From the NCBI GenBank assembly GCA_043813075.1, contig JBDRLL010000032.1:1-51027 (forward strand): a stretch of DNA of 51,027 nt. Reading direction: 5' to 3'. Position numbers and translations under genes: made by a program. A model generated the notes under the pieces. The model made no database searches. It had not been told where the DNA came from and saw only the letters and a program-made list of their open reading frames with translations. Shown one piece after another: positions 61-33,649 of this stretch. The DNA is from Candidatus Altiarchaeota archaeon. GTDB lineage: Archaea > Altiarchaeota > Altiarchaeia > IMC4 > SCGC-AAA252-I15. Positions within the stretch are counted from its first letter, which is position 1. The number at the start of each line of letters is the position of its first letter.

Positions 61-546
61 CTACCATCCTATCTTGTACTTCTTTTTCTTATCGTCTTCA
101 TCATGATAGTAGACCTTCTTGTATCCCAGGGTCTCAGTGTAGTCCAAGTAGTATATCTTCTCAGGTATCACCTCGACAAACACGTGGTTGTCGGGTATGC
201 CCCCGAGTTCCATGACCACCGGGAACTTGTCCTCATAGGCCTTGACTATGTGTGGGATCTTCCTCTTGCTGTGTATCCTGATTTTCCCGAACAACTGTAT
301 GCCCTTTATTTCACGGAAGTCCTCGTAATCCTCGTCTATGGTCAGCGAGACCATCGGGTTCGCCTCCATTATGTGCACCTTCTCTGAATGATGCTCTGTC
401 TCAAAGAACAAGTGCAGTCCCTCATTCAGGTAGTATACCGTATACGCGCTCGGCTTCTGCCCGTCACTCAAGGCTAGCCTAGCCACCTTATGCGAGCCCA
501 TGTACTCCAGCATCTTATCTATCAAATCCTGGTCCACAAAAATCAC
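61..546 (-). CDS. Pyridoxamine 5'-phosphate oxidase-like FMN-binding split-barrel protein
   Basis: RLALSDGQKPSAYTVYY, HSEKVHIMEANPMVSLTI and GIQLFG match the PNPOx-like family; 4-nt overlap with fprA. Confidence 0.8.
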   Translation of the reverse strand: MIFVDQDLIDKMLEYMGSHKVARLALSDGQKPSAYTVYYLNEGLHLFFETEHHSEKVHIMEANPMVSLTIDEDYEDFREIKGIQLFGKIRIHSKRKIPHIVKAYEDKFPVVMELGGIPDNHVFVEVIPEKIYYLDYTETLGYKKVYYHDEDDKKKKYKIGW

Positions 547-1733
547 CCCCTCATCAAACCATACTCCTTATGCTTTTCTTCTATGGCGTCCGCCAGCCCG
601 TCCAACAACCCATAGTCAGCGTCTCTGGGATACCCCCTGATGTTAACCGGCTCAATCCATTCAGCACCAAGATTACCCATCAGGCCCTTCATCTGCTCAG
701 GCATCCTGCTACCCCAACCATAAGACCCGACTGCGCTCAAGAGCCTTGTCTTAGGCCTCAACGCGTTCACGAGATATGCCGCGTAGACTGCCGCAGGATG
801 CGGTCCAGTCAACACTGTTGGCGTCGCTATCACTATCGTTGCAGCGTCGACTACCGCCATCGCCAAGTCTCCCACATCCGTCTTAGCGAGGTTGTAGGGC
901 TTCACCTTCACGCCCCTCCCCATCAACGCTTCCGTAAGATGGCGCACAATCCTGTCAGTGCTCCCGTGCATGGAAATGTATGGGAGCACCACCTCATTCC
1001 TGACTTCATCTGAAGTCCACTTCCGGTAAGCGTCTATTATGAACTCCGGCTTATCGTACACCGGCCCGTGGCTCGCCGCGATAACATCGATGTCATAACC
1101 CCCCAGTCTCTCGAGATGGCCTTTTATGACTGTCCTGAACGGCATCATTATCTCCGCGTAATACCTCTTCGCGGAGTCGTACACCTTCTTCTCGTCAACC
1201 GCGTAGAGTTCGCTCGTCGCCAGATGGGATCCGAAAAAATCACAGGAGAAGAGTATCCTATCCTCCCTAAGGTACGTCAGCATGGTCTCCGGCCAGTGCA
1301 CCCACGGCGTGATCATGAACTCAAGGGTTCTGTCTCCGAGGGAGAGTGTCTCGCTGTCCCCAACAATCTTGAACTTTTCATCAGGTATCTGCAGCAGGTC
1401 TTTCAGGAATTCCTTGCACTTCCCGTTAGTCACAACCACTGCTTCAGGGTACTTGTCAAGTATCCCTGGTATTGTGCCTGAATGATCCTGCTCGGCATGG
1501 TTTGGTATAACATAGTCTATCCTGTCAATGCCCAGCCCATCAATGTTATCAATCAACTCGTTTTCCTTAGTCGGGTCGACAGTGTCTATGAGTGCGGTCT
1601 TACCGCTGCCCCTCACAATATACGCATTGTAGCTGGTGCCGTCAGGCAATGGTATCAGCTCGTCGAATATGCGCCTGTCCCAGTCTATGGCTCCAACGCT
1701 GTAGACTCCCTTCTTCAGTTCCCCAACCGCCAT
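543..1733 (-). CDS. fprA: Flavodiiron protein (A-type flavoprotein, O2/NO reductase)
   Basis: GTSYNAY, NHAEQDHSG, WVHWPET, SCDFFGSH; C-terminal flavodoxin motifs SMHGST and GSYGWG. Confidence 0.95.
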   Translation of the reverse strand: MAVGELKKGVYSVGAIDWDRRIFDELIPLPDGTSYNAYIVRGSGKTALIDTVDPTKENELIDNIDGLGIDRIDYVIPNHAEQDHSGTIPGILDKYPEAVVVTNGKCKEFLKDLLQIPDEKFKIVGDSETLSLGDRTLEFMITPWVHWPETMLTYLREDRILFSCDFFGSHLATSELYAVDEKKVYDSAKRYYAEIMMPFRTVIKGHLERLGGYDIDVIAASHGPVYDKPEFIIDAYRKWTSDEVRNEVVLPYISMHGSTDRIVRHLTEALMGRGVKVKPYNLAKTDVGDLAMAVVDAATIVIATPTVLTGPHPAAVYAAYLVNALRPKTRLLSAVGSYGWGSRMPEQMKGLMGNLGAEWIEPVNIRGYPRDADYGLLDGLADAIEEKHKEYGLMRG

Positions 1734-1740
1734 TCTATAC

Positions 1741-2241
1741 CTAGGATGTTATTGTTCTGAAGTCGTGGAATTCACCCGTCTCTGTGATGAACTCCACCTC
1801 CTTCTCGAGTATCATGAGGTGCTTCTCCTCCTCGCCAGCAATATTGTTGAATATCACTGAACAGCTCTCGTCGCCGCACTGCTCTCCAAGCCTCCTGTAT
1901 AACTCAATGCTGTTCTTCTCCGCTTGGATGCCGATGTTCAATGCTGCGAGAGAGTCAGCTTTATCATCCGCCCTCCCGCCAGGCACGTTAACGCGGAATA
2001 TATCATCCTCAATCTCATGTATGTCAGGGATCCAGACCATCAAGACCATGTCTAGACCGGATTTCTCCATCATCTCACGGATCCTGTTGGCGTGAATCAC
2101 CTCCTCGCTGGCAAGGAAGTCGAACATGGACTTTCCCTCACCCTCGCCCGTATTCTCAGAACACTTCTTGTAGAACGCGTAACCCCTCTCCTCTAGCTCA
2201 ATAGCCTTCTTGAAGGCCTCCCCTAGCTTTACTTCAGGCAT
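1741..2241 (-). CDS. Ferritin-like / rubrerythrin-family diiron protein without a rubredoxin domain
   Basis: Duplicated AIxxE..Y / EExxH helices (AIELEERG..FY, EEVIH, QAEKNS..LY, EEEKH). Confidence 0.85.
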   Translation of the reverse strand: MPEVKLGEAFKKAIELEERGYAFYKKCSENTGEGEGKSMFDFLASEEVIHANRIREMMEKSGLDMVLMVWIPDIHEIEDDIFRVNVPGGRADDKADSLAALNIGIQAEKNSIELYRRLGEQCGDESCSVIFNNIAGEEEKHLMILEKEVEFITETGEFHDFRTITS

Positions 2242-2286
2242 CTCTCATCTCCTCTAAAAAAATAAAAAATGGGCTTATCGGATCCT

Positions 2287-2445
2287 CTACTGGATTAGAC
2301 CCGACTTTATCCCCGACTTCAGGGCATCCCACTCGCTCTTCTTGAGCGTGCACAGATTCCCATCCTCCCCTATCTTCACTAAGTCGTCTTGAACGTCGAC
2401 GACAGGGCAGCAGGTCTTACCACCGCATATGCTATACACTGTCAT
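2287..2445 (-). CDS. Small 52-aa Cys-containing protein, absent from the ORF track
   Basis: Hand translation MTVYSICGGKTCCPVVDVQDDLVKIGEDGNLCTLKKSEWDALKSGIKSGLIQ*; SD AGAGGTGA just upstream; fills the operon gap. Confidence 0.75.
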   Translation of the reverse strand: MTVYSICGGKTCCPVVDVQDDLVKIGEDGNLCTLKKSEWDALKSGIKSGLIQ

Positions 2446-2464
2446 ATCTATATCACCTCTTAAT

Positions 2465-2656
2465 TTATTCCACTAACTTCTTAAATAGGTCTTTCCCGAC
2501 GCCGCATAGCGGGCATGTCCATGATTCAGGGACCTTCTCGAACGGTGTCCCAGGCTTCACGTTGTTGTCAGGATCCCCCTTCACAGGGTCGTAGACGTAA
2601 CCGCACACAGTGCACTTGTACTTGTCCTTCCCCCCGGTCTCGCCGTCATCAGCCAT
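2465..2656 (-). CDS. Rubredoxin (63 aa; start moved to the ATG at 2656)
   Basis: [12 protein letters not shown]...[18 protein letters not shown]. Confidence 0.95.
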
Positions 2657-2658
2657 AT

Positions 2659-3243
2659 TCAATACACCTCGCACTTTATCTGGAAATATGATGTGGGATG
2701 ACCGCATGAAGGGCATTTTTCCGGAGGACTGGCTCCGTCGTGTGTGTAGCCGCACTTCCTGCATACCCACGACTTCGGCTCGCTCTTCTTGAACACGCTA
2801 CCGCCCTCGACCTCGGCGAGGAGCTTCTTGTACCTCTCCTCATGGTGCATCTCTGCTTTTGCTATCGCCCTCAGCCTTGCTGCAATATCCTTAAAACCCT
2901 CCGTCTCAGCGACTTTCGCGAACTCCGGATACATTGTCGTGTGCTCGTAGTTCTCCCCTGCGGCAGCCTCCTTCAGGTTCTCAATGGTAGTGCCTAATAC
3001 TGTCGGTCCTGTGGCCTCCACTGTTATCTCACCGTAGTCTTCACTGCTCTTTCCCTTCAACTCGTTTATGAGCCTGAAGAGCCATTTAGCGTGCTCCCTC
3101 TCCTGCTCGGCGGTCTCCAGGAATATCGCTGAAACCTGTTCGTAACCCTCTTTCTGAGCTGTCCTCGCGTATATGGTGTACCTGTTGCGGGCCATGCTCT
3201 CCCCCATAAAAGCCTTCATCAAGTTTTTTATTGTGTCGTCCAT
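2659..3243 (-). CDS. rbr: Rubrerythrin
   Basis: [37 protein letters not shown]; C-terminal CRKCGY...CPSCGH. Confidence 0.95.
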
Positions 3244-3577: not shown

Positions 3578-3664
3578 CGGTTTTCCTGGTTTTTCTCCCA
3601 TTATGCTAAACAACATAATTATTCTCTTATGCATAAAAATAAGCGATAAATATTTATATGTGAA

Positions 3665-3678
3665 TTAACGATTGTTAT
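3665..3678. promoter_or_regulatory. TTAAC-N4-GTTAA-type operator upstream of metY
   Basis: TTAACGATTGTTAT directly downstream of the TATA-like TTTATA (3653-3658). Confidence 0.6.
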
Positions 3679-3703
3679 TACTCTACTTTTGGGGTGATGT
3701 ATA

Positions 3704-4996
3704 ATGACAGGCAAAAAACACGGAATCGAGACGAAAGCATTGCACGCAGGACAGGATCCAGACCCAACGACCCTATCCAGGGCAGTACCCCTATACCGGA
3801 CAAGCAGCTACGTCTTCAAGGACACGGAACACGCGGCAAACCTTTTCGGGCTTAAGGAGCTGGGCAACATCTACACCCGCTTGATGAACCCGACCACAGA
3901 CGTGCTAGAGAAAAGGCTCGCAGAACTAGAGGGCGGCGTTGGGGCGCTAGCAGTATCGTCAGGAACGACAGCCATATTCTACAGCATAGTGAACCTGGCT
4001 AGGATAGGCGACGAGATAGCATCGGCAAACGACCTCTACGGCGGAACATACACCCAGTTCAACAACATACTCCCAGACTTCGGGATAAAAACAAACTTCG
4101 TGGACCCCACCGACCCGGACAACTTCAAGAAAGCCGTAACAGACAAGACAAAAGCATTGTACTCCGAGACCATCGGAAACCCGGCATTGAATGTCCCAGA
4201 CTTCAAGGCAATCGCAGACATAGCCCACGACAACGGGATACCCTACATAGTCGACAGCACATTCACCACACCCTACCTGCTGAATCCCATAGAACACGGC
4301 GTAGACATCATAGACTACTCGCTCACCAAATGGATCGGCGGCCACGGCACCGCAATAGGCGGCGCGGTCGTGGACTTCGGGAAATTCGAATGGAGCAAGT
4401 CAAAAAAACACCCGCTCATGACAGAGCCTGATGAAAGCTACCATGGAATAAGATACGCCCACGACCTCGGAGACATGAGCCCACTCGCATACATACTGCG
4501 CATGAGACTCGTCCCGCTCCGCAACCTCGGGGGATGCATATCACCAGACAACTCCTGGATATTCCTTCAGGGACTTGAGACACTGCCCCTGAGGATGGAG
4601 CGTCACTGCGAGAACTCGCTTAAGACAGCGGAACACCTGAGCGCCCACGACAAGGTGGAGTCAGTCAGCTATCCTGGCCTCGACACCCACCCGACGAACG
4701 ACAACGCCAGGAAATACCTTAAGAAAGGGTACGGTTCCGTGGTAGTATTTGAGGTGAAGGGCGGCGCAAAGGCGGGACGCAAGTTCATAGAGTCGCTGGA
4801 ACTCTTCAGTCACCTCGCCAACGTTGGCGATGCAAAGAGCCTCGCCATACACCCGGCGAGCACAACACACAGCCAGCTGACAGAGAATCAACAGAAACAA
4901 GGAGGGATAACGCCAGGACTAATACGATTGTCTATCGGAATAGAGGACATCGGGGACATAACCTCAGACATAGACCAGGCGTTAAGCAGGATATAA
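3704..4996 (+). CDS. metY: O-acetylhomoserine aminocarboxypropyltransferase (sulfhydrylase)
   Basis: GNIYTRLMNPT, PLP-lysine motif SLTKWIGGHG, HLANVGDAKSLAIHPASTTHSQL. Confidence 0.95.
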   Translation: MTGKKHGIETKALHAGQDPDPTTLSRAVPLYRTSSYVFKDTEHAANLFGLKELGNIYTRLMNPTTDVLEKRLAELEGGVGALAVSSGTTAIFYSIVNLARIGDEIASANDLYGGTYTQFNNILPDFGIKTNFVDPTDPDNFKKAVTDKTKALYSETIGNPALNVPDFKAIADIAHDNGIPYIVDSTFTTPYLLNPIEHGVDIIDYSLTKWIGGHGTAIGGAVVDFGKFEWSKSKKHPLMTEPDESYHGIRYAHDLGDMSPLAYILRMRLVPLRNLGGCISPDNSWIFLQGLETLPLRMERHCENSLKTAEHLSAHDKVESVSYPGLDTHPTNDNARKYLKKGYGSVVVFEVKGGAKAGRKFIESLELFSHLANVGDAKSLAIHPASTTHSQLTENQQKQGGITPGLIRLSIGIEDIGDITSDIDQALSRI

Positions 4997-4997
4997 C

Positions 4998-6110
4998 ATG
5001 GCGAAGAATCAAGGATCACTCGGGGTTGTGAAGACCAAGCACTACGACTTCAACGAGCTAACACTGGACAGCGGTGAGAAGATCAGCCCTGTGAGGATAG
5101 CGTACGAAACCTACGGGAGGCTCAACAAGGAGAAAAACAACGCAATCCTCATATGCCACGCCCTGAGCGGAGACGCGCACGCGGCAGGAAAACACCGTAA
5201 AAACAGCCGGAAAAACGGGTGGTACGACATCGCGGTCGGCCCGGGCAAGACCTTCGACACGCGCAAATACTTCGTCATATGCTCCAACGTAATCGGCGGC
5301 TGCAGGGGCTCCACAGGACCCTCATCCAAAAACCCGAAGACAGGCAAGCCATACGGTCTTGACTTTCCCACAATAACGGTCGGAGACATGGTCCGCGCCC
5401 AGAAGAGGCTGGTCGAACACCTGGGCGTAAGCAGGCTAAAATGCATTGTCGGAGGGAGTCTGGGCGGCATGCAGGTCCTCGAATGGGTTGCCAGATACCC
5501 TGACGCAAGCGAAAAGGCGATTGCAATAGCAACAGCCGCACGGCAATACCCTCTCGGCATAGCACTGCACGACGTCGGCAGACAGGCCATAATAAACGAC
5601 CCCTCATGGAGGAAAGGAGACTACTACTCAAAGGGACAGCCGAAGGAGGGTCTTGCACTAGCCAGAAAAGTGGCTCACATATCCTACCTAAGCCACGAGA
5701 CCTTCGAACGAAAGTTCGGGAGAGCAAGGAAAAAACGGAGAAACGGTAAGTTCAGCACAGAGTTCGAAGTGCAGAGCTACCTGAACTACCAGGGCAGCAG
5801 TTTCGTGAGGAGATTCGACGCCAACAGCTACTTGTACATAACAAACGCGATAGACCAGTTCGACCTCACCGAAGGGGGGAGAAAAAAGCTGAAGGACCTC
5901 TTCAAGAACGCCAAATCCAAGTTCCTCTTGGTTTCATTCACATCCGACTGGCTATACCCCCCGGAACAGGTCGAAGAGGTTTTCAACGCACTGGCGGAAT
6001 CAGGGATACCGTCGGTATACAGGAATCTAGACCTGCCATATGGCCACGACGCCTTTCTAGTATACAACAACACGCTCGGCAACGCGCTCTCGGGCTTCAT
6101 CAACGACTAG
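4998..6110 (+). CDS. metX: Homoserine O-acetyltransferase
   Basis: CHALSGDAH, nucleophile elbow GGSLGGMQ, RFDANSY, GHDAFL. Confidence 0.95.
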   Translation: MAKNQGSLGVVKTKHYDFNELTLDSGEKISPVRIAYETYGRLNKEKNNAILICHALSGDAHAAGKHRKNSRKNGWYDIAVGPGKTFDTRKYFVICSNVIGGCRGSTGPSSKNPKTGKPYGLDFPTITVGDMVRAQKRLVEHLGVSRLKCIVGGSLGGMQVLEWVARYPDASEKAIAIATAARQYPLGIALHDVGRQAIINDPSWRKGDYYSKGQPKEGLALARKVAHISYLSHETFERKFGRARKKRRNGKFSTEFEVQSYLNYQGSSFVRRFDANSYLYITNAIDQFDLTEGGRKKLKDLFKNAKSKFLLVSFTSDWLYPPEQVEEVFNALAESGIPSVYRNLDLPYGHDAFLVYNNTLGNALSGFIND

Positions 6111-6403
6111 ACATGTTTAGCCGCATTCCTGCAGCACCTGCATATCAACCTGGAGACGACATCATCACTGCTGTCTGCGCTGATTTCGACAGCAGCTTTG
6201 GCAATCATCTCCCTGTACCCTGCGGGCATCCTCCCTCCACCTCCGCGCTTCTTGTGCAGATACTGGGATACAGCGGACGGGGTTATGTCCAGCACCCTGG
6301 CGACATCCTTCTGCCGCATCCCGTTCTTAACGAGCTCCCTCGCCAAATCCGCCCTTATACGGGGCAGAGTGTACCATATAGCTTCCTCACACGGTAATGC
6401 CAT
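6107..6403 (-). CDS. Archaeal HTH transcriptional regulator (COG2522-like) with N- and C-terminal cysteines
   Basis: LPCE..., HTH QKDVARVLDITPSAVSQYL, C-terminal ICRCCR; divergent from cysK. Confidence 0.85.
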   Translation of the reverse strand: MALPCEEAIWYTLPRIRADLARELVKNGMRQKDVARVLDITPSAVSQYLHKKRGGGGRMPAGYREMIAKAAVEISADSSDDVVSRLICRCCRNAAKHV

Positions 6404-6410
6404 GATACTA

Positions 6411-6424
6411 TTAACTATAGTTAA
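6411..6424. promoter_or_regulatory. Perfect 14-bp palindrome; operator in front of the HTH gene
   Basis: TTAACTATAGTTAA between TATA (6426-6433) and the ATG at 6403. Confidence 0.7.
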
Positions 6425-6447
6425 GTTTTTATACTAGTATGTCACAA

Positions 6448-6465
6448 TATTAACAATTGTTAATA
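6448..6465. promoter_or_regulatory. Perfect 18-bp palindrome; operator at the cys operon promoter
   Basis: TATTAACAATTGTTAATA, over the expected transcription start downstream of TTTTTATA (6426-6433). Confidence 0.7.
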
Positions 6466-6467
6466 AA

Positions 6468-6545
6468 ATGGTTGGATTGCTTTACCTCCTCAGAGGGGCA
6501 GGAACCCCACTGACATGTCCGTGTCCCTGCCAGTGTCGGGTCTAG
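6468..6545 (+). CDS. Putative Cys-rich leader peptide of the cys operon (25 aa)
   Basis: MVGLLYLLRGAGTPLTCPCPCQCRV*; four Cys codons in 7 positions, between the promoter and cysK. Confidence 0.65.
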   Translation: MVGLLYLLRGAGTPLTCPCPCQCRV

Positions 6546-6634
6546 ACACCCGCACACACCATTAACCCACACGGACAAACCAAATAAAAAAACCAATTCT
6601 TTTTTACCATCCAACAAAAACCAAAGGTGATAAA

Positions 6635-7561
6635 ATGACGTTAAACAACATACTAAGTACGATAGGCGGCACACCACACGTAAGGCTCCATAAAATGCCT
6701 GCTGAAGGAAGCGCTGAAGTCATCGCCAAGATAGAGTCATTCAACCCAGGCTCCTCAGTCAAAGACAGGATAGCCCTCTACATGATAGAGGCGGCCGAGA
6801 AAGAAGGTCTACTAAGAGAAGACAGCGTTATAGTGGAGCCCACGTCCGGGAACACCGGGATCGGGCTCGCAATGGTGGCTGCAGTCAAAGGATACAAGCT
6901 GAAGCTGACCATGCCGGACACGATGAGCCTTGAACGCAGGAAAATCCTGAAGGCATTCGGCGCGGAACTAGTTCTGACTGAAGGCTCGAAGGGGATGGGC
7001 GGCGCAGTTGAGAAGGCAGTGGAACTAGGCAAACAAGACACCCACGTCTTCATACCCCAACAGTTCAAGAACAAGGCGAACGTGAAAGCCCACGAGGAAA
7101 CCACAGCCAAAGAGATAATGGATGACGTGGGAGAATTCGACGCGTTCGTGGCGGGAGTCGGAACAGGAGGAACAATAACCGGAGTCGCGACCGCACTAAA
7201 AGAAAAACTCCCTTCAGCCAAATTCATCGCAGTGGAGCCTACAACATCACCCGTACTCTCCGGCGGAGAGAAAGGCCCCCACAAGATACAGGGCATCGGC
7301 GCCGGATTCATACCTGACATAATGCGCCTAGACCTGGTGGACGAAGTCATAAAAGTCAAGGATGAAGACGCGTTCAAGACTGCTGAACGCCTCGCCAGGG
7401 AAGAGGGAATACTCGCGGGAATATCCTCCGGAGCCAACACGTGGGCCGCACTAGAGGTAGCGAAAAAACTGGGTGAAGGAAAGAAGGTTGTGGTAATACT
7501 CCCCGACACTGGGGAGAGATACCTTTCGACAAAACTATTCGAGGAACGTGAAGATGCTTGA
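6635..7561 (+). CDS. cysK: Cysteine synthase A
   Basis: [46 protein letters not shown]; SD AGGTGA. Confidence 0.97.
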
Positions 7562-8138
7562 CGTATTCAAGGTAGCCTACGAGAAGGATCCTGCATTAAG
7601 GAAGGGCGTGGGATTCCTGGAGGTCCTCCTATACCCAGGAGTGCAGGCGATAATACTCTACCGGATAGCGCACGCCCTACATAAAACAGGGATGCCCATC
7701 CTACCCCGAGCCATCTCCTACTTTGGCAGGTTCCTGACTGGGGCTGAAATACACCCGGCCGCAAGGATAGGGAAAAGATTCTTCATAGACCACGCCACCG
7801 GCGTGGTCATCGGGGAGACAGCGGAAGTCGGAGACAACGTGATGATGTACCACAACGTCACCCTAGGCGGCCATGGATGGTGGCGCGACAAGAAAGGTGA
7901 GAAAAGACACCCCACAATAGAAGACAACGTGATACTCGGCGTCGGCGCCACAGTACTCGGCCCCGTAACAGTAAAGAAGAACTCGCGGGTGGGTGCGTTG
8001 TCCGTCATAGTCGACGACATACCTGAAGACTCGACGGTCGTATGCCCTAAAGGCAGGCTAAGGATAATGGAAGGATGCTACAAGCGCCTCATAGACCCCT
8101 GCGACCACTGCACTAAAGAACCGGAATGGGTGATATAA
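7548..8138 (+). CDS. cysE: Serine O-acetyltransferase
   Basis: [42 protein letters not shown]; start may be the ATG at 7554. Confidence 0.93.
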
Positions 8139-8156
8139 AAAAAACACAATAACAAT

Positions 8157-8193
8157 AGCGAGGACTAGGGCAACGGAGTTGACTAGTCCTGCT
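8157..8193 (+). other. Strong bulged hairpin immediately 5' of tRNA-Cys
   Basis: AGGACTAG (8161-8168) pairs with CTAGTCCT (8183-8190); inner CAAC-GGA-GTTG; outer AGC/GCT. Confidence 0.6.
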
Positions 8194-8203
8194 CTCCCCG
8201 AAA

Positions 8204-8274
8204 GCGAGGATGCCAGAGCGGCTATGGAGTGGCCTGCAAAGCCATCAACGGGGGTTCAAATCCCTCTCCTCGCT
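8204..8274 (+). tRNA. tRNA-Cys (GCA), intronless, CCA not encoded
   Basis: Acceptor GCGAGGA/TCCTCGC, discriminator U; D stem CCA/TGG; anticodon arm GTGGC-CTGCAAA-GCCAT; T arm GGGGG-TTCAAAT-CCCTC. Confidence 0.95.
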
Positions 8275-8280
8275 CAACCT

Positions 8281-8385: not shown

Positions 8386-9783
8386 ATGAGCCTACGAGTA
8401 TACAACACAATGTCCAGGAGGCTGGAGGAATTCAAGCCCCTCAGCGAAGGCAAGGTCAGTGTATACGTCTGCGGGATGACGGTGTACGACAACATGCACA
8501 TCGGGCACGCGAGGACGTACGTCGCATTCGACGTGATACTACGCTACCTCAAACACAGTGGCTACAAGGTGCGGTACATCCAAAACATCACGGACATAGA
8601 CGACAAGATAATAAACCGGGCCAGAGAACGCGACACCAACCCGATGGAACTATCCAGAGAATACGCTGAAAAAGCACTGAAAGACCAGGAAGCTCTCGGC
8701 CTCATGAAAGCCGACGAATACCCGAAGGTGTCGGAGACCATCCCAGACATAATCAACGCAGCCCAGACCCTGATAAGCAAAGGTCACGCATACGTCGTCA
8801 ACGGCAGCGTATACTTCAGCGTATCGTCCGCCGACGGCTACGGGAAGCTGTCCAACCAGGATATCGAACAGTTGAACAGGCATCGGATAGACCCTGACCC
8901 TGAAAAGAAGGACCCCCTCGACTTCGCACTATGGAAGAGGGTGCCTGACGGGGAACATGGGTTTGAAAGTCCATGGGGCTACGGTAGGCCAGGCTGGCAC
9001 ATAGAATGCTCTGTCATGTCGAAAAAGCATCTCGGCGACAGCTTCGACATACACGGCGGAGCGCTAGACCTCATATTCCCACACCACGAGAACGAGGTGG
9101 CGCAGAGCGAGGCGTTGACAGGTAAAAAACCGTTCGTGAAATACTGGATGCACACCGGCTTCCTCAACTCGTCTGGAGAGAAGATGAGCAAGTCGCTCGG
9201 CAACATACTCTCTGTAAGAGAATTCCTAGACAAACACAGCAAAGACGCGTTCCGGCTGTTCATACTCCAGTCACACTACAGGAGTCCCGTAGACTACGGG
9301 GAAGAAAAAATACATGCAGCTGAAAGCGCTCTTTCGCGGCTAAGGAACTTCAGGAAAAACATGTTGGCAACTTCCGATTCCGCCAGTGAAAACGGCAGTG
9401 AAAAAATTTTTGAGATATTCGAGAGATTTAGGGCAGAGTTCAACGAGGCGATGGACGACGACTTCGACACGCCAAAGGCGATATCCCGGATATTCACTGC
9501 AGTCAAGGACTCAAACACGCTCTTGCCGGGGGGAACGGACTCAAGGGAATCCCTCAGAAAGTCGATTGAAATACTCGACGAACTAGCTGGAGTCATAGGA
9601 CTGAACCTAGTTGAAGACGGTGTTACGCTGACTGACGTCGAAGAGGAGCTGATAGAGCGCCGTAAGCGCCTCCGTGACGAGAAGAACTGGGCGGAATCAG
9701 ACCGCATACGCGGTGAACTCGCGAAACGCGGTCTAAGGATCATAGACAAGAGCGATGGATTAACAATCGTTGAAAGGATTTAA
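8386..9783 (+). CDS. cysS: Cysteine--tRNA ligase (start corrected to the ATG at 8386)
   Basis: MSLRVYNTM, CGMTVYDNMHIGH, DFALWK, GRPGWHIECS, DIHGGALDLIFPHHENE, KMSKS. Confidence 0.97.
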   Translation: MSLRVYNTMSRRLEEFKPLSEGKVSVYVCGMTVYDNMHIGHARTYVAFDVILRYLKHSGYKVRYIQNITDIDDKIINRARERDTNPMELSREYAEKALKDQEALGLMKADEYPKVSETIPDIINAAQTLISKGHAYVVNGSVYFSVSSADGYGKLSNQDIEQLNRHRIDPDPEKKDPLDFALWKRVPDGEHGFESPWGYGRPGWHIECSVMSKKHLGDSFDIHGGALDLIFPHHENEVAQSEALTGKKPFVKYWMHTGFLNSSGEKMSKSLGNILSVREFLDKHSKDAFRLFILQSHYRSPVDYGEEKIHAAESALSRLRNFRKNMLATSDSASENGSEKIFEIFERFRAEFNEAMDDDFDTPKAISRIFTAVKDSNTLLPGGTDSRESLRKSIEILDELAGVIGLNLVEDGVTLTDVEEELIERRKRLRDEKNWAESDRIRGELAKRGLRIIDKSDGLTIVERI

Positions 9784-9813: not shown

Positions 9814-10296
9814 ATGATGGACAGGAAGATCAGCAACAGGATGGTCGGCGGACTGCTCATAGCCCTTGCGTTAGCGGTGTCATACCTGCTGGTATCGTTC
9901 CTGAACATGCTGAACGAGCTGAGCCAGAGCTCTTGCACGTGCGGCGACACCTGCAACATGGTCCACTATGATACTCCCGCAACATTCTACCTCGGGTTCA
10001 TAGCAGTATTCATCCTACTATTCATCGGCATATACATATTCGCGAAGAAGGAGCCTGCCACAACATCGGACCGGAAGGAAAAGTGGTCTGAAAAACTCAG
10101 CACCCTCGACGCCGACGAGAAGGTGGTATTCACGCTGCTTATGGAGTCGGATGGCACGCTATTCCAAAGCGAGATAGTCGAGAAGACTGGGCTATCCAAG
10201 GTGAAGGTCACGCGGATACTCGACAAACTAGAGTCTCGTATGATGGTGGAACGCAGGAGACGCGGCCTCACAAACATAGTGGTCATCAAGGATTGA
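9814..10296 (+). CDS. Membrane-anchored winged-HTH protein (COG2512-like)
   Basis: Two TM segments around a CTCGDTC loop; C-terminal QSEIVEKTGLSKVKVTRILDKLE...RRRRGLTN. Confidence 0.8.
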   Translation: MMDRKISNRMVGGLLIALALAVSYLLVSFLNMLNELSQSSCTCGDTCNMVHYDTPATFYLGFIAVFILLFIGIYIFAKKEPATTSDRKEKWSEKLSTLDADEKVVFTLLMESDGTLFQSEIVEKTGLSKVKVTRILDKLESRMMVERRRRGLTNIVVIKD

Positions 10297-32902: not shown

Positions 32903-33649
32903 ATGAAACAATACACGAAACACCTCATGCTATCCTATCTAATGGCCATAACCACTGCAGAATGGCTTTTAACCTACGTTGACGTGGTCTACGGCCTGCT
33001 GTTGCATTCAGCCGTTTTCATAACCACTGTCCTCATATACTGGCGCAACTGGTCTAAATTCACCCTGAACGGGAGCATGGTCCTACTATCCTTCTCATAC
33101 GTATCCCTCAGCCGCCTGGTCAGCGTCTCCATACTGGGCGAAATCCAGGATGTAATCCCGGTAATCGTTTTCACCAACGCCCCACTATTGATCTGCCTCT
33201 TCGGGTGCATACGTAGCGTCGGAATATCACTAATGGACTTCTTCCCCTCCTGGCGTTACCTGCCCCGCGAGCTCATAATCGCCCTGACCGGCATCATATT
33301 CGGCCTGACTGAAAGGCATATAATAGACGTGACAGTAATCCCCTGGACCGGCCTCCCCTCCTTCATCTTCTCGGCCATCACGATAACGCTTCTCACAGGC
33401 CTATATGAGGAGCTATTGTTCCGCGGCATAGTATTCAAGTATCTTGCCGATGTTGGCAGCAAATGGTTTGCAGTATTCTACTCCAGCCTGCTGTTCGCGG
33501 TAATGCACATAGCGTGGGAGTCATTCATCGACATAGTCTTTGTATTCACGGTCGGGGCCATATACGCCCTCATCTACTATAGGACTAAGAGCCTGGCAGG
33601 CATAATATTGTCGCACGGCATAACCAACATAATCCTCTTCATGCCCTAA
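32903..33649 (+). CDS. CPBP (Abi/CAAX) intramembrane glutamic protease
   Basis: EELLFRG, FAVMH, SHGITN. Confidence 0.92.
   Translation: MKQYTKHLMLSYLMAITTAEWLLTYVDVVYGLLLHSAVFITTVLIYWRNWSKFTLNGSMVLLSFSYVSLSRLVSVSILGEIQDVIPVIVFTNAPLLICLFGCIRSVGISLMDFFPSWRYLPRELIIALTGIIFGLTERHIIDVTVIPWTGLPSFIFSAITITLLTGLYEELLFRGIVFKYLADVGSKWFAVFYSSLLFAVMHIAWESFIDIVFVFTVGAIYALIYYRTKSLAGIILSHGITNIILFMP

Follow-up and report, generated by a model that had tools for sequence, protein, structure and literature searches.

We analyzed 51,027 nucleotides of Candidatus Altiarchaeota DNA (contig JBDRLL010000032.1, positions 1 to 51,027; hereafter, the window), in which one palindromic sequence recurs at the promoters of metY-metX, of a gene encoding a 98-amino-acid (98-aa) helix-turn-helix (HTH) protein, and of cysK-cysE. 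These three operator sites are not chance occurrences, and comparison among related genomes makes it probable that the 98-aa protein has the palindrome, TTAAC-RATY-GTTAA, as its operator and that the genes behind these sites form its regulon. A sequence-only reading of the window had proposed such an operator, shared by the three promoters and recognized by an autoregulated repressor of cysteine and methionine synthesis, and had named a genome-wide motif scan and phylogenetic footprinting as ways of checking the proposal. All three sites are present exactly as that reading had quoted them, at 3665 to 3678, 6411 to 6424, and 6448 to 6465, and each lies 3′ of a TATA-like box, which is TTTATAT (3653 to 3659, plus strand) for metY and TTTTTATA (6426 to 6433) between the two central sites.

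The metY operator (TTAACGATTGTTAT, 3665 to 3678; 24.6 bits by the weight matrix described below) lies between the TATA-like box and the predicted start of transcription. Behind it, on the plus strand, are metY (3704 to 4996), encoding an O-acetylhomoserine sulfhydrylase (TIGR01326, 626.7 bits, over the cut-off), and metX (4998 to 6110), encoding a homoserine O-acetyltransferase (NF001209, 485.5 bits, over the cut-off). The HTH gene, identified from its open reading frame (ORF) and from family comparison, occupies 6107 to 6403 on the minus strand, with operator A (TTAACTATAGTTAA, 6411 to 6424; 25.0 bits) between its TATA box and its ATG. Operator B (TTAACAATTGTTAA, 6450 to 6463; 29.4 bits), which as an 18-mer is TATTAACAATTGTTAATA (6448 to 6465), covers the position at which cysK transcription is predicted to start. 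The genes downstream, also on the plus strand, are cysK (6635 to 7561; cysteine synthase A, TIGR01139, 441.8 bits, over the cut-off), cysE (7548 to 8138; serine O-acetyltransferase, NF041874 at 191.2 bits over the cut-off and TIGR01172 at 198 bits just under it), a tRNA-Cys gene (GCA; 8204 to 8275, from an Rfam/tRNA scan of the window) between cysE and cysS, and cysS itself (8386 to 9783). The last was identified as a cysteinyl-tRNA synthetase gene from its translation, with a predicted start (the listed ORF opens at 8179), and its orthologue in one relative (G024) was typed by Pfam.

A search of the window for TTAAC-N4-GTTAA, allowing one mismatch, gave six matches, compared to 0.77 expected, and none of 100 shuffled sequences reached six. 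Two of the six, at 32969 and 40313, were set aside as chance, both scoring below 10 bits by the matrix. The genome as a whole (1,798,969 bases in 41 contigs, 51.5% GC, 89% complete) has three exact copies, namely, the pair at 6411 and 6450 and one on another contig (C11:52437). The weight matrix has 18 columns and was built from 37 sites at the loci of relatives only, with this genome excluded and with two sites each from L027 and L015, judged likely to be chance, left out of training. These sites show that the spacer is conserved too, so that the consensus is the full palindrome given above. Scanned with this matrix, the genome has four strong sites, at cysK (6448, 29.4 bits), at a gene for a membrane HTH protein on contig C11 (C11:52435, 25.5 bits), at the HTH gene (6409, 25.0 bits), and at metY (3663, 24.6 bits); the next-best matches score 16.3 bits (9758, 5′ of a second membrane HTH gene) and then 14.7 bits. 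Shuffled intergenic DNA (100,080 bases, 41.9% GC) gave a mean of 0.095 sites of at least 20 bits and a maximum of two in 200 shuffles, compared to three in the real intergenic set, which excludes the C11 site since it falls in a contig-end stretch.

Footprinting was carried out on a set of 41 related Altiarchaeota-like genomes that includes this one. The HTH gene was found in 22 of the 40 relatives, which with this genome gives 23 of 41, and in many of them it is divergent from cysK-cysE or metY or adjoins metX. An operator with at most one mismatch lies within 300 nt 5′ of the HTH gene at 23 of 27 loci, mostly about 22 and about 61 nt ahead of the start codon, as the autoregulation proposed by the sequence-only reading would predict; with a threshold of 20 bits, 19 of 23 genomes have one there. 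Of the 23 genomes with the HTH gene, 22 contain the exact form TTAAC-NATN-GTTAA; of the 18 that lack the gene, 2 do, so that the operator and the gene co-occur. Both of the latter genomes have a single site (18.8 and 17.6 bits) that a crude ORF call places in coding DNA, and a control with the pattern reversed matched in only 1 of the 41 genomes.

The association also extends to the target genes. Because the regulon loci had been chosen by site, the count was repeated from the gene side for metY and for the nifS-like cysteine desulfurase gene. An operator of at least 20 bits lies within 200 nt of metY in 12 of 15 HTH-positive genomes and in none of the one HTH-negative genome with the gene. 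For the nifS-like gene, the corresponding counts are 7 of 17 and 0 of 9, and among the closest orthologues 7 of 8. The cysK gene has an operator within 260 nt in 15 of the 16 genomes seen, a set chosen partly by site, and a search of HTH-negative genomes found no cysK match in four of five. The exception among the 16 is G004 (92% complete), which offers a natural control: the search gave no HTH gene in it, and its cysK, metY, and nifS-like genes are present and have no operator (best scores of −8.2, −1.8, and −10.9 bits, respectively). Its cysK promoter retains the TATA box and the small leader ORF described below, with unrelated sequence at the position of the operator.

Alignment of promoters on the operator reveals two geometries. 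About 3 nt separate the end of the TATA box from the 18-mer operator in the metY-type promoters and in the promoter of the regulator itself, and the operator would there occupy the interval from TATA box to start point. Six of seven aligned metY promoters carry TATTTATAT ending 3 nt 5′ of the 18-mer, and in the seventh (L056) the TATA position is taken up by two overlapping operator sites instead. In the cysK-type promoters (cysK, cystathionine beta-synthase [CBS], tRNA-Cys-cysS, and nifS), a TTTTTATAC box ends about 14 to 16 nt before the operator, which would thus sit on the predicted start point. Both are positions at which archaeal repressors block polymerase recruitment. In the window, the A/T-rich element at 6426 to 6433 reads TTTTTATA on the plus strand and TATAAAAA on the minus strand and lies 12.5 bp from operator A and 26.5 bp from operator B, center to center. 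These distances match the two geometries of the relatives, one for each direction, and the single element is positioned so that it could serve the promoters of both directions. With 27 nt between the element and the regulator's ATG, a leaderless regulator mRNA is probable. The transcription start points here are predictions throughout, near 6403/6404 on the minus strand and near 3680 and 6456 on the plus strand. The repressor geometry described by the sequence-only reading therefore holds with regard to position, in that the sites lie after the TATA box as repression would lead one to expect, and repression itself stays a prediction.

The genes behind palindrome sites away from the HTH gene were typed with Pfam and NCBIfam, and they bear out the cysteine and methionine regulon that had been proposed. 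In the relatives, they include cysK, metY, a NifS/IscS-type cysteine desulfurase, tRNA-Cys-cysS, and CBS, along with ThiS, ThiF, a threonine-synthase-like PLP enzyme, SufB, a CDGSH iron-sulfur (Fe-S) protein, PdxS, an SQR-like oxidoreductase, and Thi4, for which an operator was seen in just one relative (G035). The targets also include membrane-anchored HTH proteins of two kinds, and PurN, a solute-binding protein, and ApbE are targets with no obvious link to sulfur. Immediately 5′ of tRNA-Cys-cysS, G024 has an operator accompanied by a separate TATA box (L054, 4788 to 5011), which makes tRNA-Cys and the synthetase members of the cysteine synthesis regulon. For this genome, the members would be metY-metX, the regulator, the cysK operon, and the membrane HTH gene on C11, perhaps joined by the gene at 9814.

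The two membrane-anchored proteins are of different types. The C11-type protein (L001, 4929 to 5570) has a His-rich N terminus, and its gene has the operator upstream. The gene at 9814 to 10296 (plus strand) encodes, by its translation and Pfam, a DUF7343/MarR-like winged HTH protein with a CTCGDTC motif; proteins of this type have a CxCxxxC motif after the membrane helix, and in relatives their gene often adjoins an operator-controlled nifS-like gene. A weak operator-like site (TTAACAATCGTTGA, 9760 to 9773; 16.3 bits) lies 38 nt 5′ of the gene in the window, and in G011 (21.4 bits) and G035 (19.5 bits) the sites before the orthologous genes are stronger than this. The gene is probably a member of the regulon.

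The regulator has the cysteines attributed to it by the sequence-only reading, in a PCE motif at residues 4 to 6 and a CRCC motif at residues 88 to 91, and its gene lies, as described there, between the two operons. Only residues 22 to 52 match HTH_3 (PF01381, XRE/Cro type), and the match is marginal (24.2 bits against a cut-off of 23); that model covers the helix-turn-helix core without the N-terminal PCE arm or the two C-terminal CxCC helices. NCBIfam has no match to the protein. The family is large, with 2,072 representatives at an E value of ≤0.001 and 756 clusters at ≤1e−10, and the names given to stand-alone members are generic (“transcriptional regulator,” “Fis family,” and “helix-turn-helix domain-containing”). 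All 27 close members have C88, C90, and C91, and at least 90% of them have C5; among 43 diverse members, P4, C5, E6, C88, and C91 are nearly invariant and C90 is not. An AlphaFold model has five helices (pLDDT, 80.5; pTM, 0.71). The best match in the PDB by Foldseek has an E value of 0.51, with NsrR appearing only as a noise-level row (E value, 2.2); a wide structure search with VIA-align gave a best Z score of 5.4, within noise; and a sequence-profile search of the PDB returned only generic HTH proteins and designed repeats. The description of the family as little characterized thus stands, with no solved or named close relative in Pfam, NCBIfam, or the PDB. The literature on COG2522, to which the sequence-only reading had likened the protein, yielded only an unrelated match.

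The closest described relationship is to the DNA-binding part of HTH-ThiN proteins. In the ESM Atlas, the N-terminal domain of these proteins matches the regulator over residues 1 to 98 with a TM score of 0.75 to 0.79, and the family profile matches two HTH-ThiN fusions, P0206 and P0207, with E values of 1.7e−13 and 1.8e−12, these being the two such fusions among 8,000 scored candidates in a family-alignment search. A comparison of the regulator family with HTH-ThiN by hhalign gave 97.3% probability over 93 columns; a separate sequence alignment has 33% identity, and PCE and CxxC are aligned in both. A search for longer or fused forms with the single protein as the query found none. ThiR is reportedly an archaeal thiamine regulator, said to have been described by Rodionov et al. 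in 2017, in which an N-terminal HTH domain is fused to ThiN, and we take fusions of the P0206/P0207 type to be ThiR. Homology to the N-terminal DNA-binding domain of these fusions extends over all 98 aa of the protein, and, on these alignments, the protein is a stand-alone ThiR-type DNA-binding domain with an added fourth cysteine. It differs from ThiR in having no ThiN effector domain or any further domain in its 98 aa, in the fourth cysteine, and in its targets, which belong to cysteine, methionine, and Fe-S metabolism (cysK, metY, and nifS-like) and not to thiamine synthesis or transport. ThiN (PF10120) was not found in this genome; ThiN proteins occur in 27 of 61 genomes of the phylum, mostly in frames of about 440 aa or of about 205 to 240 aa, and these frames include no clear HTH-ThiN protein for comparison.

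Other family members carry the domain in different arrangements. P0054 and P0059 have tandem copies in one chain and would so be single-chain pseudo-dimers. These proteins, along with the palindromic form of the sites, hint that the 98-aa protein would bind its operator as a dimer, with one HTH per half-site. The bound protein would keep RNA polymerase off the promoters of metY-metX, of its own gene, and of cysK-cysE(-tRNA-Cys-cysS), and the result would be an autoregulated repressor of cysteine and homocysteine/methionine synthesis. We infer binding, dimer formation, the direction of the effect, and the signal from sequence comparison.

The signal may be a metal or Fe-S center on Cys5, Cys88, Cys90, and Cys91, which we put forward tentatively. 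Such a center would be filled when the supply of cysteine or of Fe-S clusters is ample, and the holo form would bind DNA and repress; the center would be lost upon sulfur shortage or oxidation, leading to derepression in an IscR-like logic. We favor Fe-S or cysteine sensing because the 98-aa protein has no separate ligand-binding domain and no other part that could receive a signal and because a regulon containing a cysteine desulfurase, SufB, a CDGSH protein, and cysK fits feedback of the IscR kind. A fusion of the domain to a class-V aminotransferase of the cysteine desulfurase family (P0174) was counted as linking the family to that enzyme.

Several observations weigh against the assignment of the operator to the regulator or against a sensing center on its cysteines. 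The genomes compared are kin, and the co-occurrence counts overstate their independence. G040 has the HTH gene and no exact palindrome. In 3 of the 15 HTH-positive genomes with metY, the operator before that gene is decayed (G008, 11.2 bits) or absent (G007 and G011), and it is absent before 10 of the 17 nifS-like genes in HTH-positive genomes, including the one in this genome (C30:6760 to 7902), near which the best score is −0.9 bits. The P0174 fusion has PQE where the regulator has PCE. The PCE...CxxC triad is common to the ThiR-type HTH-ThiN fusions, which have an effector domain of their own in ThiN, and the triad may therefore be structural rather than part of a sensor; C90 is the only cysteine specific to the subfamily of the regulator. 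The orthologues in Chlorobiaceae, to which we return below, lie in a different gene context, mostly without the archaeal palindrome.

The same features bear on what else the signal could be. It is possible that the HTH protein represses from this operator as proposed and that its signal is something other than an Fe-S center. The cysteines would then form a thiol, persulfide, or disulfide switch or a structural zinc site, and the effector would be a small molecule or a partner protein. In Bacillus subtilis, CysK together with O-acetylserine controls CymR, which offers a parallel. The occurrence of the triad in fusions with their own effector domain favors a structural center, sulfide-linked genes (SQR-like oxidoreductase, Thi4, and ThiS/ThiF) are found in the regulons of relatives, and a protein of 98 aa has no pocket-forming domain of its own. 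However, the fourth cysteine, C90, is invariant in the subfamily only and completes a set of four ligands, and the presence of Fe-S assembly genes (nifS-like, SufB, and CDGSH) in the regulon is what a sensor in an Fe-S feedback loop would predict.

It is quite unlikely that the palindrome is bound by another factor, either the DUF7343 winged HTH protein (9814 to 10296) or the C11-type membrane HTH protein, with the 98-aa protein being only a member of the regulon. The palindrome does lie 5′ of the C11-type gene in G000 (this genome), G006, G012, and G013 and 5′ of the DUF7343 type in G011 and G035, and the DUF7343 gene is often a neighbor of a nifS-like gene under the operator. However, full-length DUF7343 orthologues (E value of <1e−30) were found in 13 genomes, comprising 12 of the 24 palindrome-positive genomes and G005, which has no palindrome, whereas the 98-aa protein is present in 22 of the 24, and in most genomes a pair of sites flanks the promoter of its own gene. 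Activation, or dual regulation at some promoters, is an unlikely alternative to pure repression, somewhat favored by the fact that operator B is 5′ of the regulator's own TATA box, a position that archaeal activators can use, and by the direction of an effect not being readable from sequence alone; in every aligned class of target, though, the site is 3′ of the TATA box and abuts or covers the predicted start, which is the usual position for archaeal repressors. It is extremely improbable that the palindromes are chance A/T-rich promoter sequence or that they form a general promoter element to which no dedicated factor belongs. The sites are indeed in A/T-rich intergenic DNA beside TATA boxes, but the three to four observed contrast with the 0.095 of the shuffled sequences, they are found at sulfur-related promoters with few targets lacking an obvious link, and their presence tracks that of a single gene, the one for the HTH protein.

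As a repressor recognizing TTAAC-RATY-GTTAA, the 98-aa protein would resemble known bacterial systems in logic and differ from them in its parts. Two bacterial repressors of the Rrf2 family, IscR and CymR, act on Fe-S assembly and on cysteine metabolism. Like the regulator proposed here, they are small autoregulated repressors that report Fe-S or cysteine supply and control a cysteine desulfurase and cysK, and they differ from it in fold and family, domain of life, and operator; no Rrf2 domain is among the nine Pfam hits at E values of up to 0.01. SurR is the sulfur-response regulator of Thermococcales, a larger winged-helix protein with a CxxC redox switch and the site GTT-N3-AAC. An excerpt of one article (PMC10746257) identifies it as a transcription factor. 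The proposed regulator shares with SurR an archaeal host, the use of cysteines, and a tie to sulfur status. It differs in its half-sites, TTAAC and GTTAA with a 4-base spacer, from the SurR site, a contrast that the sequence-only reading had also drawn, and no SurR- or ArsR-type match exceeded the cut-off in Pfam or NCBIfam, nor was there any sequence relationship in the PDB profile search.

The cysK transcript may carry a second level of control. A small ORF (sORF) of 25 codons, MVGLLYLLRGAGTPLTCPCPCQCRV (6468 to 6545, plus strand), begins with an ATG 5 nt after operator B and ends in CPCPCQCRV-stop, with 4 Cys codons among its final 9. A Cys-rich sORF of 18 to 25 codons is present in all 14 distinct cysK leaders, and in 12 of them its ATG is within a few bases of an operator, the cysK-side site being decayed in the other two. 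The same kind of sORF is found 5′ of CBS in G024, as a second copy in G008, and 5′ of cysK in the regulator-less G004; a cysK-like gene in G029 (48% identity) has no leader sORF. Cys accounts for 49 of the 316 sORF codons in the 14 leaders (15.5%) and for 46 of the 126 codons in the last nine positions, compared to 1.6% in a crude proteome and to 7 of 302 and 5 of 302 codons in the other two frames. In this genome, 5 of 1,120 intergenic sORFs (4 of them distinct) have a Cys-rich end. The cysK leader thus has one hallmark of a leader-peptide attenuator, a short 5′ ORF rich in codons for the amino acid that is made.

The end of the sORF coincides with an RNA structure. In the window, a hairpin at 6533 to 6557 has the stop codon (6543 to 6545) in its loop. 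RNAalifold on a MAFFT alignment of the leaders gave no pairs, which we attribute to differences in loop length, and stop-anchored folding was therefore used instead; with this, the stop codon is in a hairpin loop in 14 of 14 leaders (mean z score, −3.1). The 5′ arm is formed by the last Cys-Arg-X codons (Cys-Arg-Val in the window) and the 3′ arm by the bases after the stop. Shuffling of the 3′ flank only raised the summed energy from −133.7 to −68.9 (standard deviation, 8.0), the lowest of 300 shuffles reaching −97.1. The stems differ between genomes (CGGGT/ACCCG, TTGTCT/AGACAA, AGAGC/GCTCT, and TAGCC/GGCTA), which indicates that the pairing itself is kept, through compensatory changes. A run of at least five T residues follows the sORF in 11 of 14 leaders, and the one in the window (TTCTTTTTT, 6597 to 6605, plus strand), between the sORF and the cysK ribosome-binding site, is a candidate attenuation point. 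GGTGA is found 5′ of the cysK ATG in 13 of 14 leaders, and 8 of 14 have a CGGAC/YGGAY motif that lies 13 to 28 nt beyond the stop codon of the sORF (about 6559 to 6572 in the window).

Two further pairings in the leader were considered and dropped, both by eye. A long-range helix between the Cys-Pro-Cys codons and CGGAC, present in the fold of the window itself, has no complementary tract in the sORFs of relatives, and pairing of the 3′ arm of the hairpin with the cysK ribosome-binding site was inconsistent. No conserved alternative pairing was found in the cysK leaders, and Rfam at gathering thresholds returned only the tRNA in the window, with no known riboswitch in the cysK leader.

Based upon these features, the cysK leader sORF looks like a ribosome-mediated sensor of cysteine. 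The hairpin around the stop codon of the leader would register ribosome occupancy, and expression would be adjusted in this way to the charging of tRNA-Cys. The whole may then consist of two stacked sensors, with a ThiR-type HTH protein repressing the cysteine, methionine, and Fe-S regulon by means of a four-Cys center reactive to Fe-S or persulfide and a short-leadered, Cys-rich leader peptide tuning cysK-cysE-tRNA-Cys-cysS, an arrangement that we consider possible and propose with caution. Translation-coupled leader-peptide control is not known to us from Archaea, and no precedent for an archaeal leader-peptide attenuator was found in the literature searched. A bacterial counterpart is the leaderless polycysteine sORF of mycobacteria, where, according to the abstract of the study by Canestrari et al. 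(bioRxiv 10.1101/834739), the stalling of ribosomes opens up a structure by which the ribosome-binding site downstream is hidden. As far as that abstract goes, both cases involve a very short ORF rich in Cys codons at the 5′ end of a transcript, before genes of cysteine metabolism and with RNA structure. The leader described here differs, within the same limits, in its archaeal host and in its conserved structure, a hairpin placed around the sORF stop in place of a duplex shown to mask the ribosome-binding site, with no conserved pairing found to the cysK ribosome-binding site.

One other intergenic ORF of this genome (C6:10366 to 10488, L204) has 40 codons, ends in SCCKSGGGCGCCD, and abuts a gene for an ArsP_1-type permease. 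It probably encodes a small thiol or metal peptide and is probably not a leader.

The metY promoter has a second palindrome upstream. Two tandem copies of TTATKC-N6-GMATAA (3601 to 3618 and 3619 to 3636) lie 5′ of the metY TATA box, and among intergenic matches with at most one mismatch, the only other in this genome is a copy at C20:9424 to 9441 (L151, 625 to 642). The C20 copy is between a minus-strand gene for an XRE-type HTH protein with a CBS-domain pair (C20:8850 to 9422) and a COG1900-like gene with CBS domains (C20:9484 to 10980). In relatives, this palindrome recurs beside metY, ThrC-like, ThiS, and CBS genes. It is probably the site of a different regulator and may be that of the HTH-CBS protein, acting from 5′ of the TATA box.

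At the other end of the sulfur genes, minus-strand ORFs at 543 to 1733, 1741 to 2241, 2465 to 2770, and 2659 to 3243 (within 61 to 3243) resemble, by a reading of their translations only, flavodiiron-type, rubrerythrin-like, rubredoxin, and rubrerythrin proteins. On that reading, they would make up an oxygen defense cluster (61 to 3243) adjoining the sulfur genes.

The close subfamily of the regulator is found in Altiarchaeota and throughout Chlorobiaceae, where the proteins have about 50% identity and cultured strains are included (L082 to L150), which suggests transfer of the subfamily between domains, involving Altiarchaeota and green sulfur bacteria. In the two cultured Chlorobiaceae strains that were typed, the gene is divergent from a gene for a heme-binding domain and is near bshC, and in one of them, cytochrome c assembly genes are also near. 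Upstream of the Chlorobiaceae genes, TAAC-N3/4-GTTA occurs at 10 of 63 loci, compared to 0.56 expected. Because context and site both differ, the role in cysteine and methionine synthesis is proposed for the archaeal lineage only.

The literature searched contained neither a transcription factor for cysteine or methionine synthesis in Archaea nor a match to the string of the operator motif. By its proposed function, the regulator is a feedback repressor of a known type; what is new is a stand-alone ThiR-type branch in this role, its presence in Archaea, and the operator, and the coupled leader-peptide device may be new for Archaea as well. If it is real, it would be the first leader-peptide attenuator in Archaea known to us, and, if functional, the leader sORF with the hairpin at its stop codon would add Archaea to the organisms in which leader peptides sense amino acids. 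We know of no pure-culture representative of Altiarchaeota, so that regulation in these organisms can be studied only through sequence and recombinant protein. The Chlorobiaceae orthologues, at about 50% identity, offer cultured organisms in which the protein can be tested, and the locus described here gives a family of stand-alone HTH proteins a testable operator, a list of targets, and a candidate sensing center.

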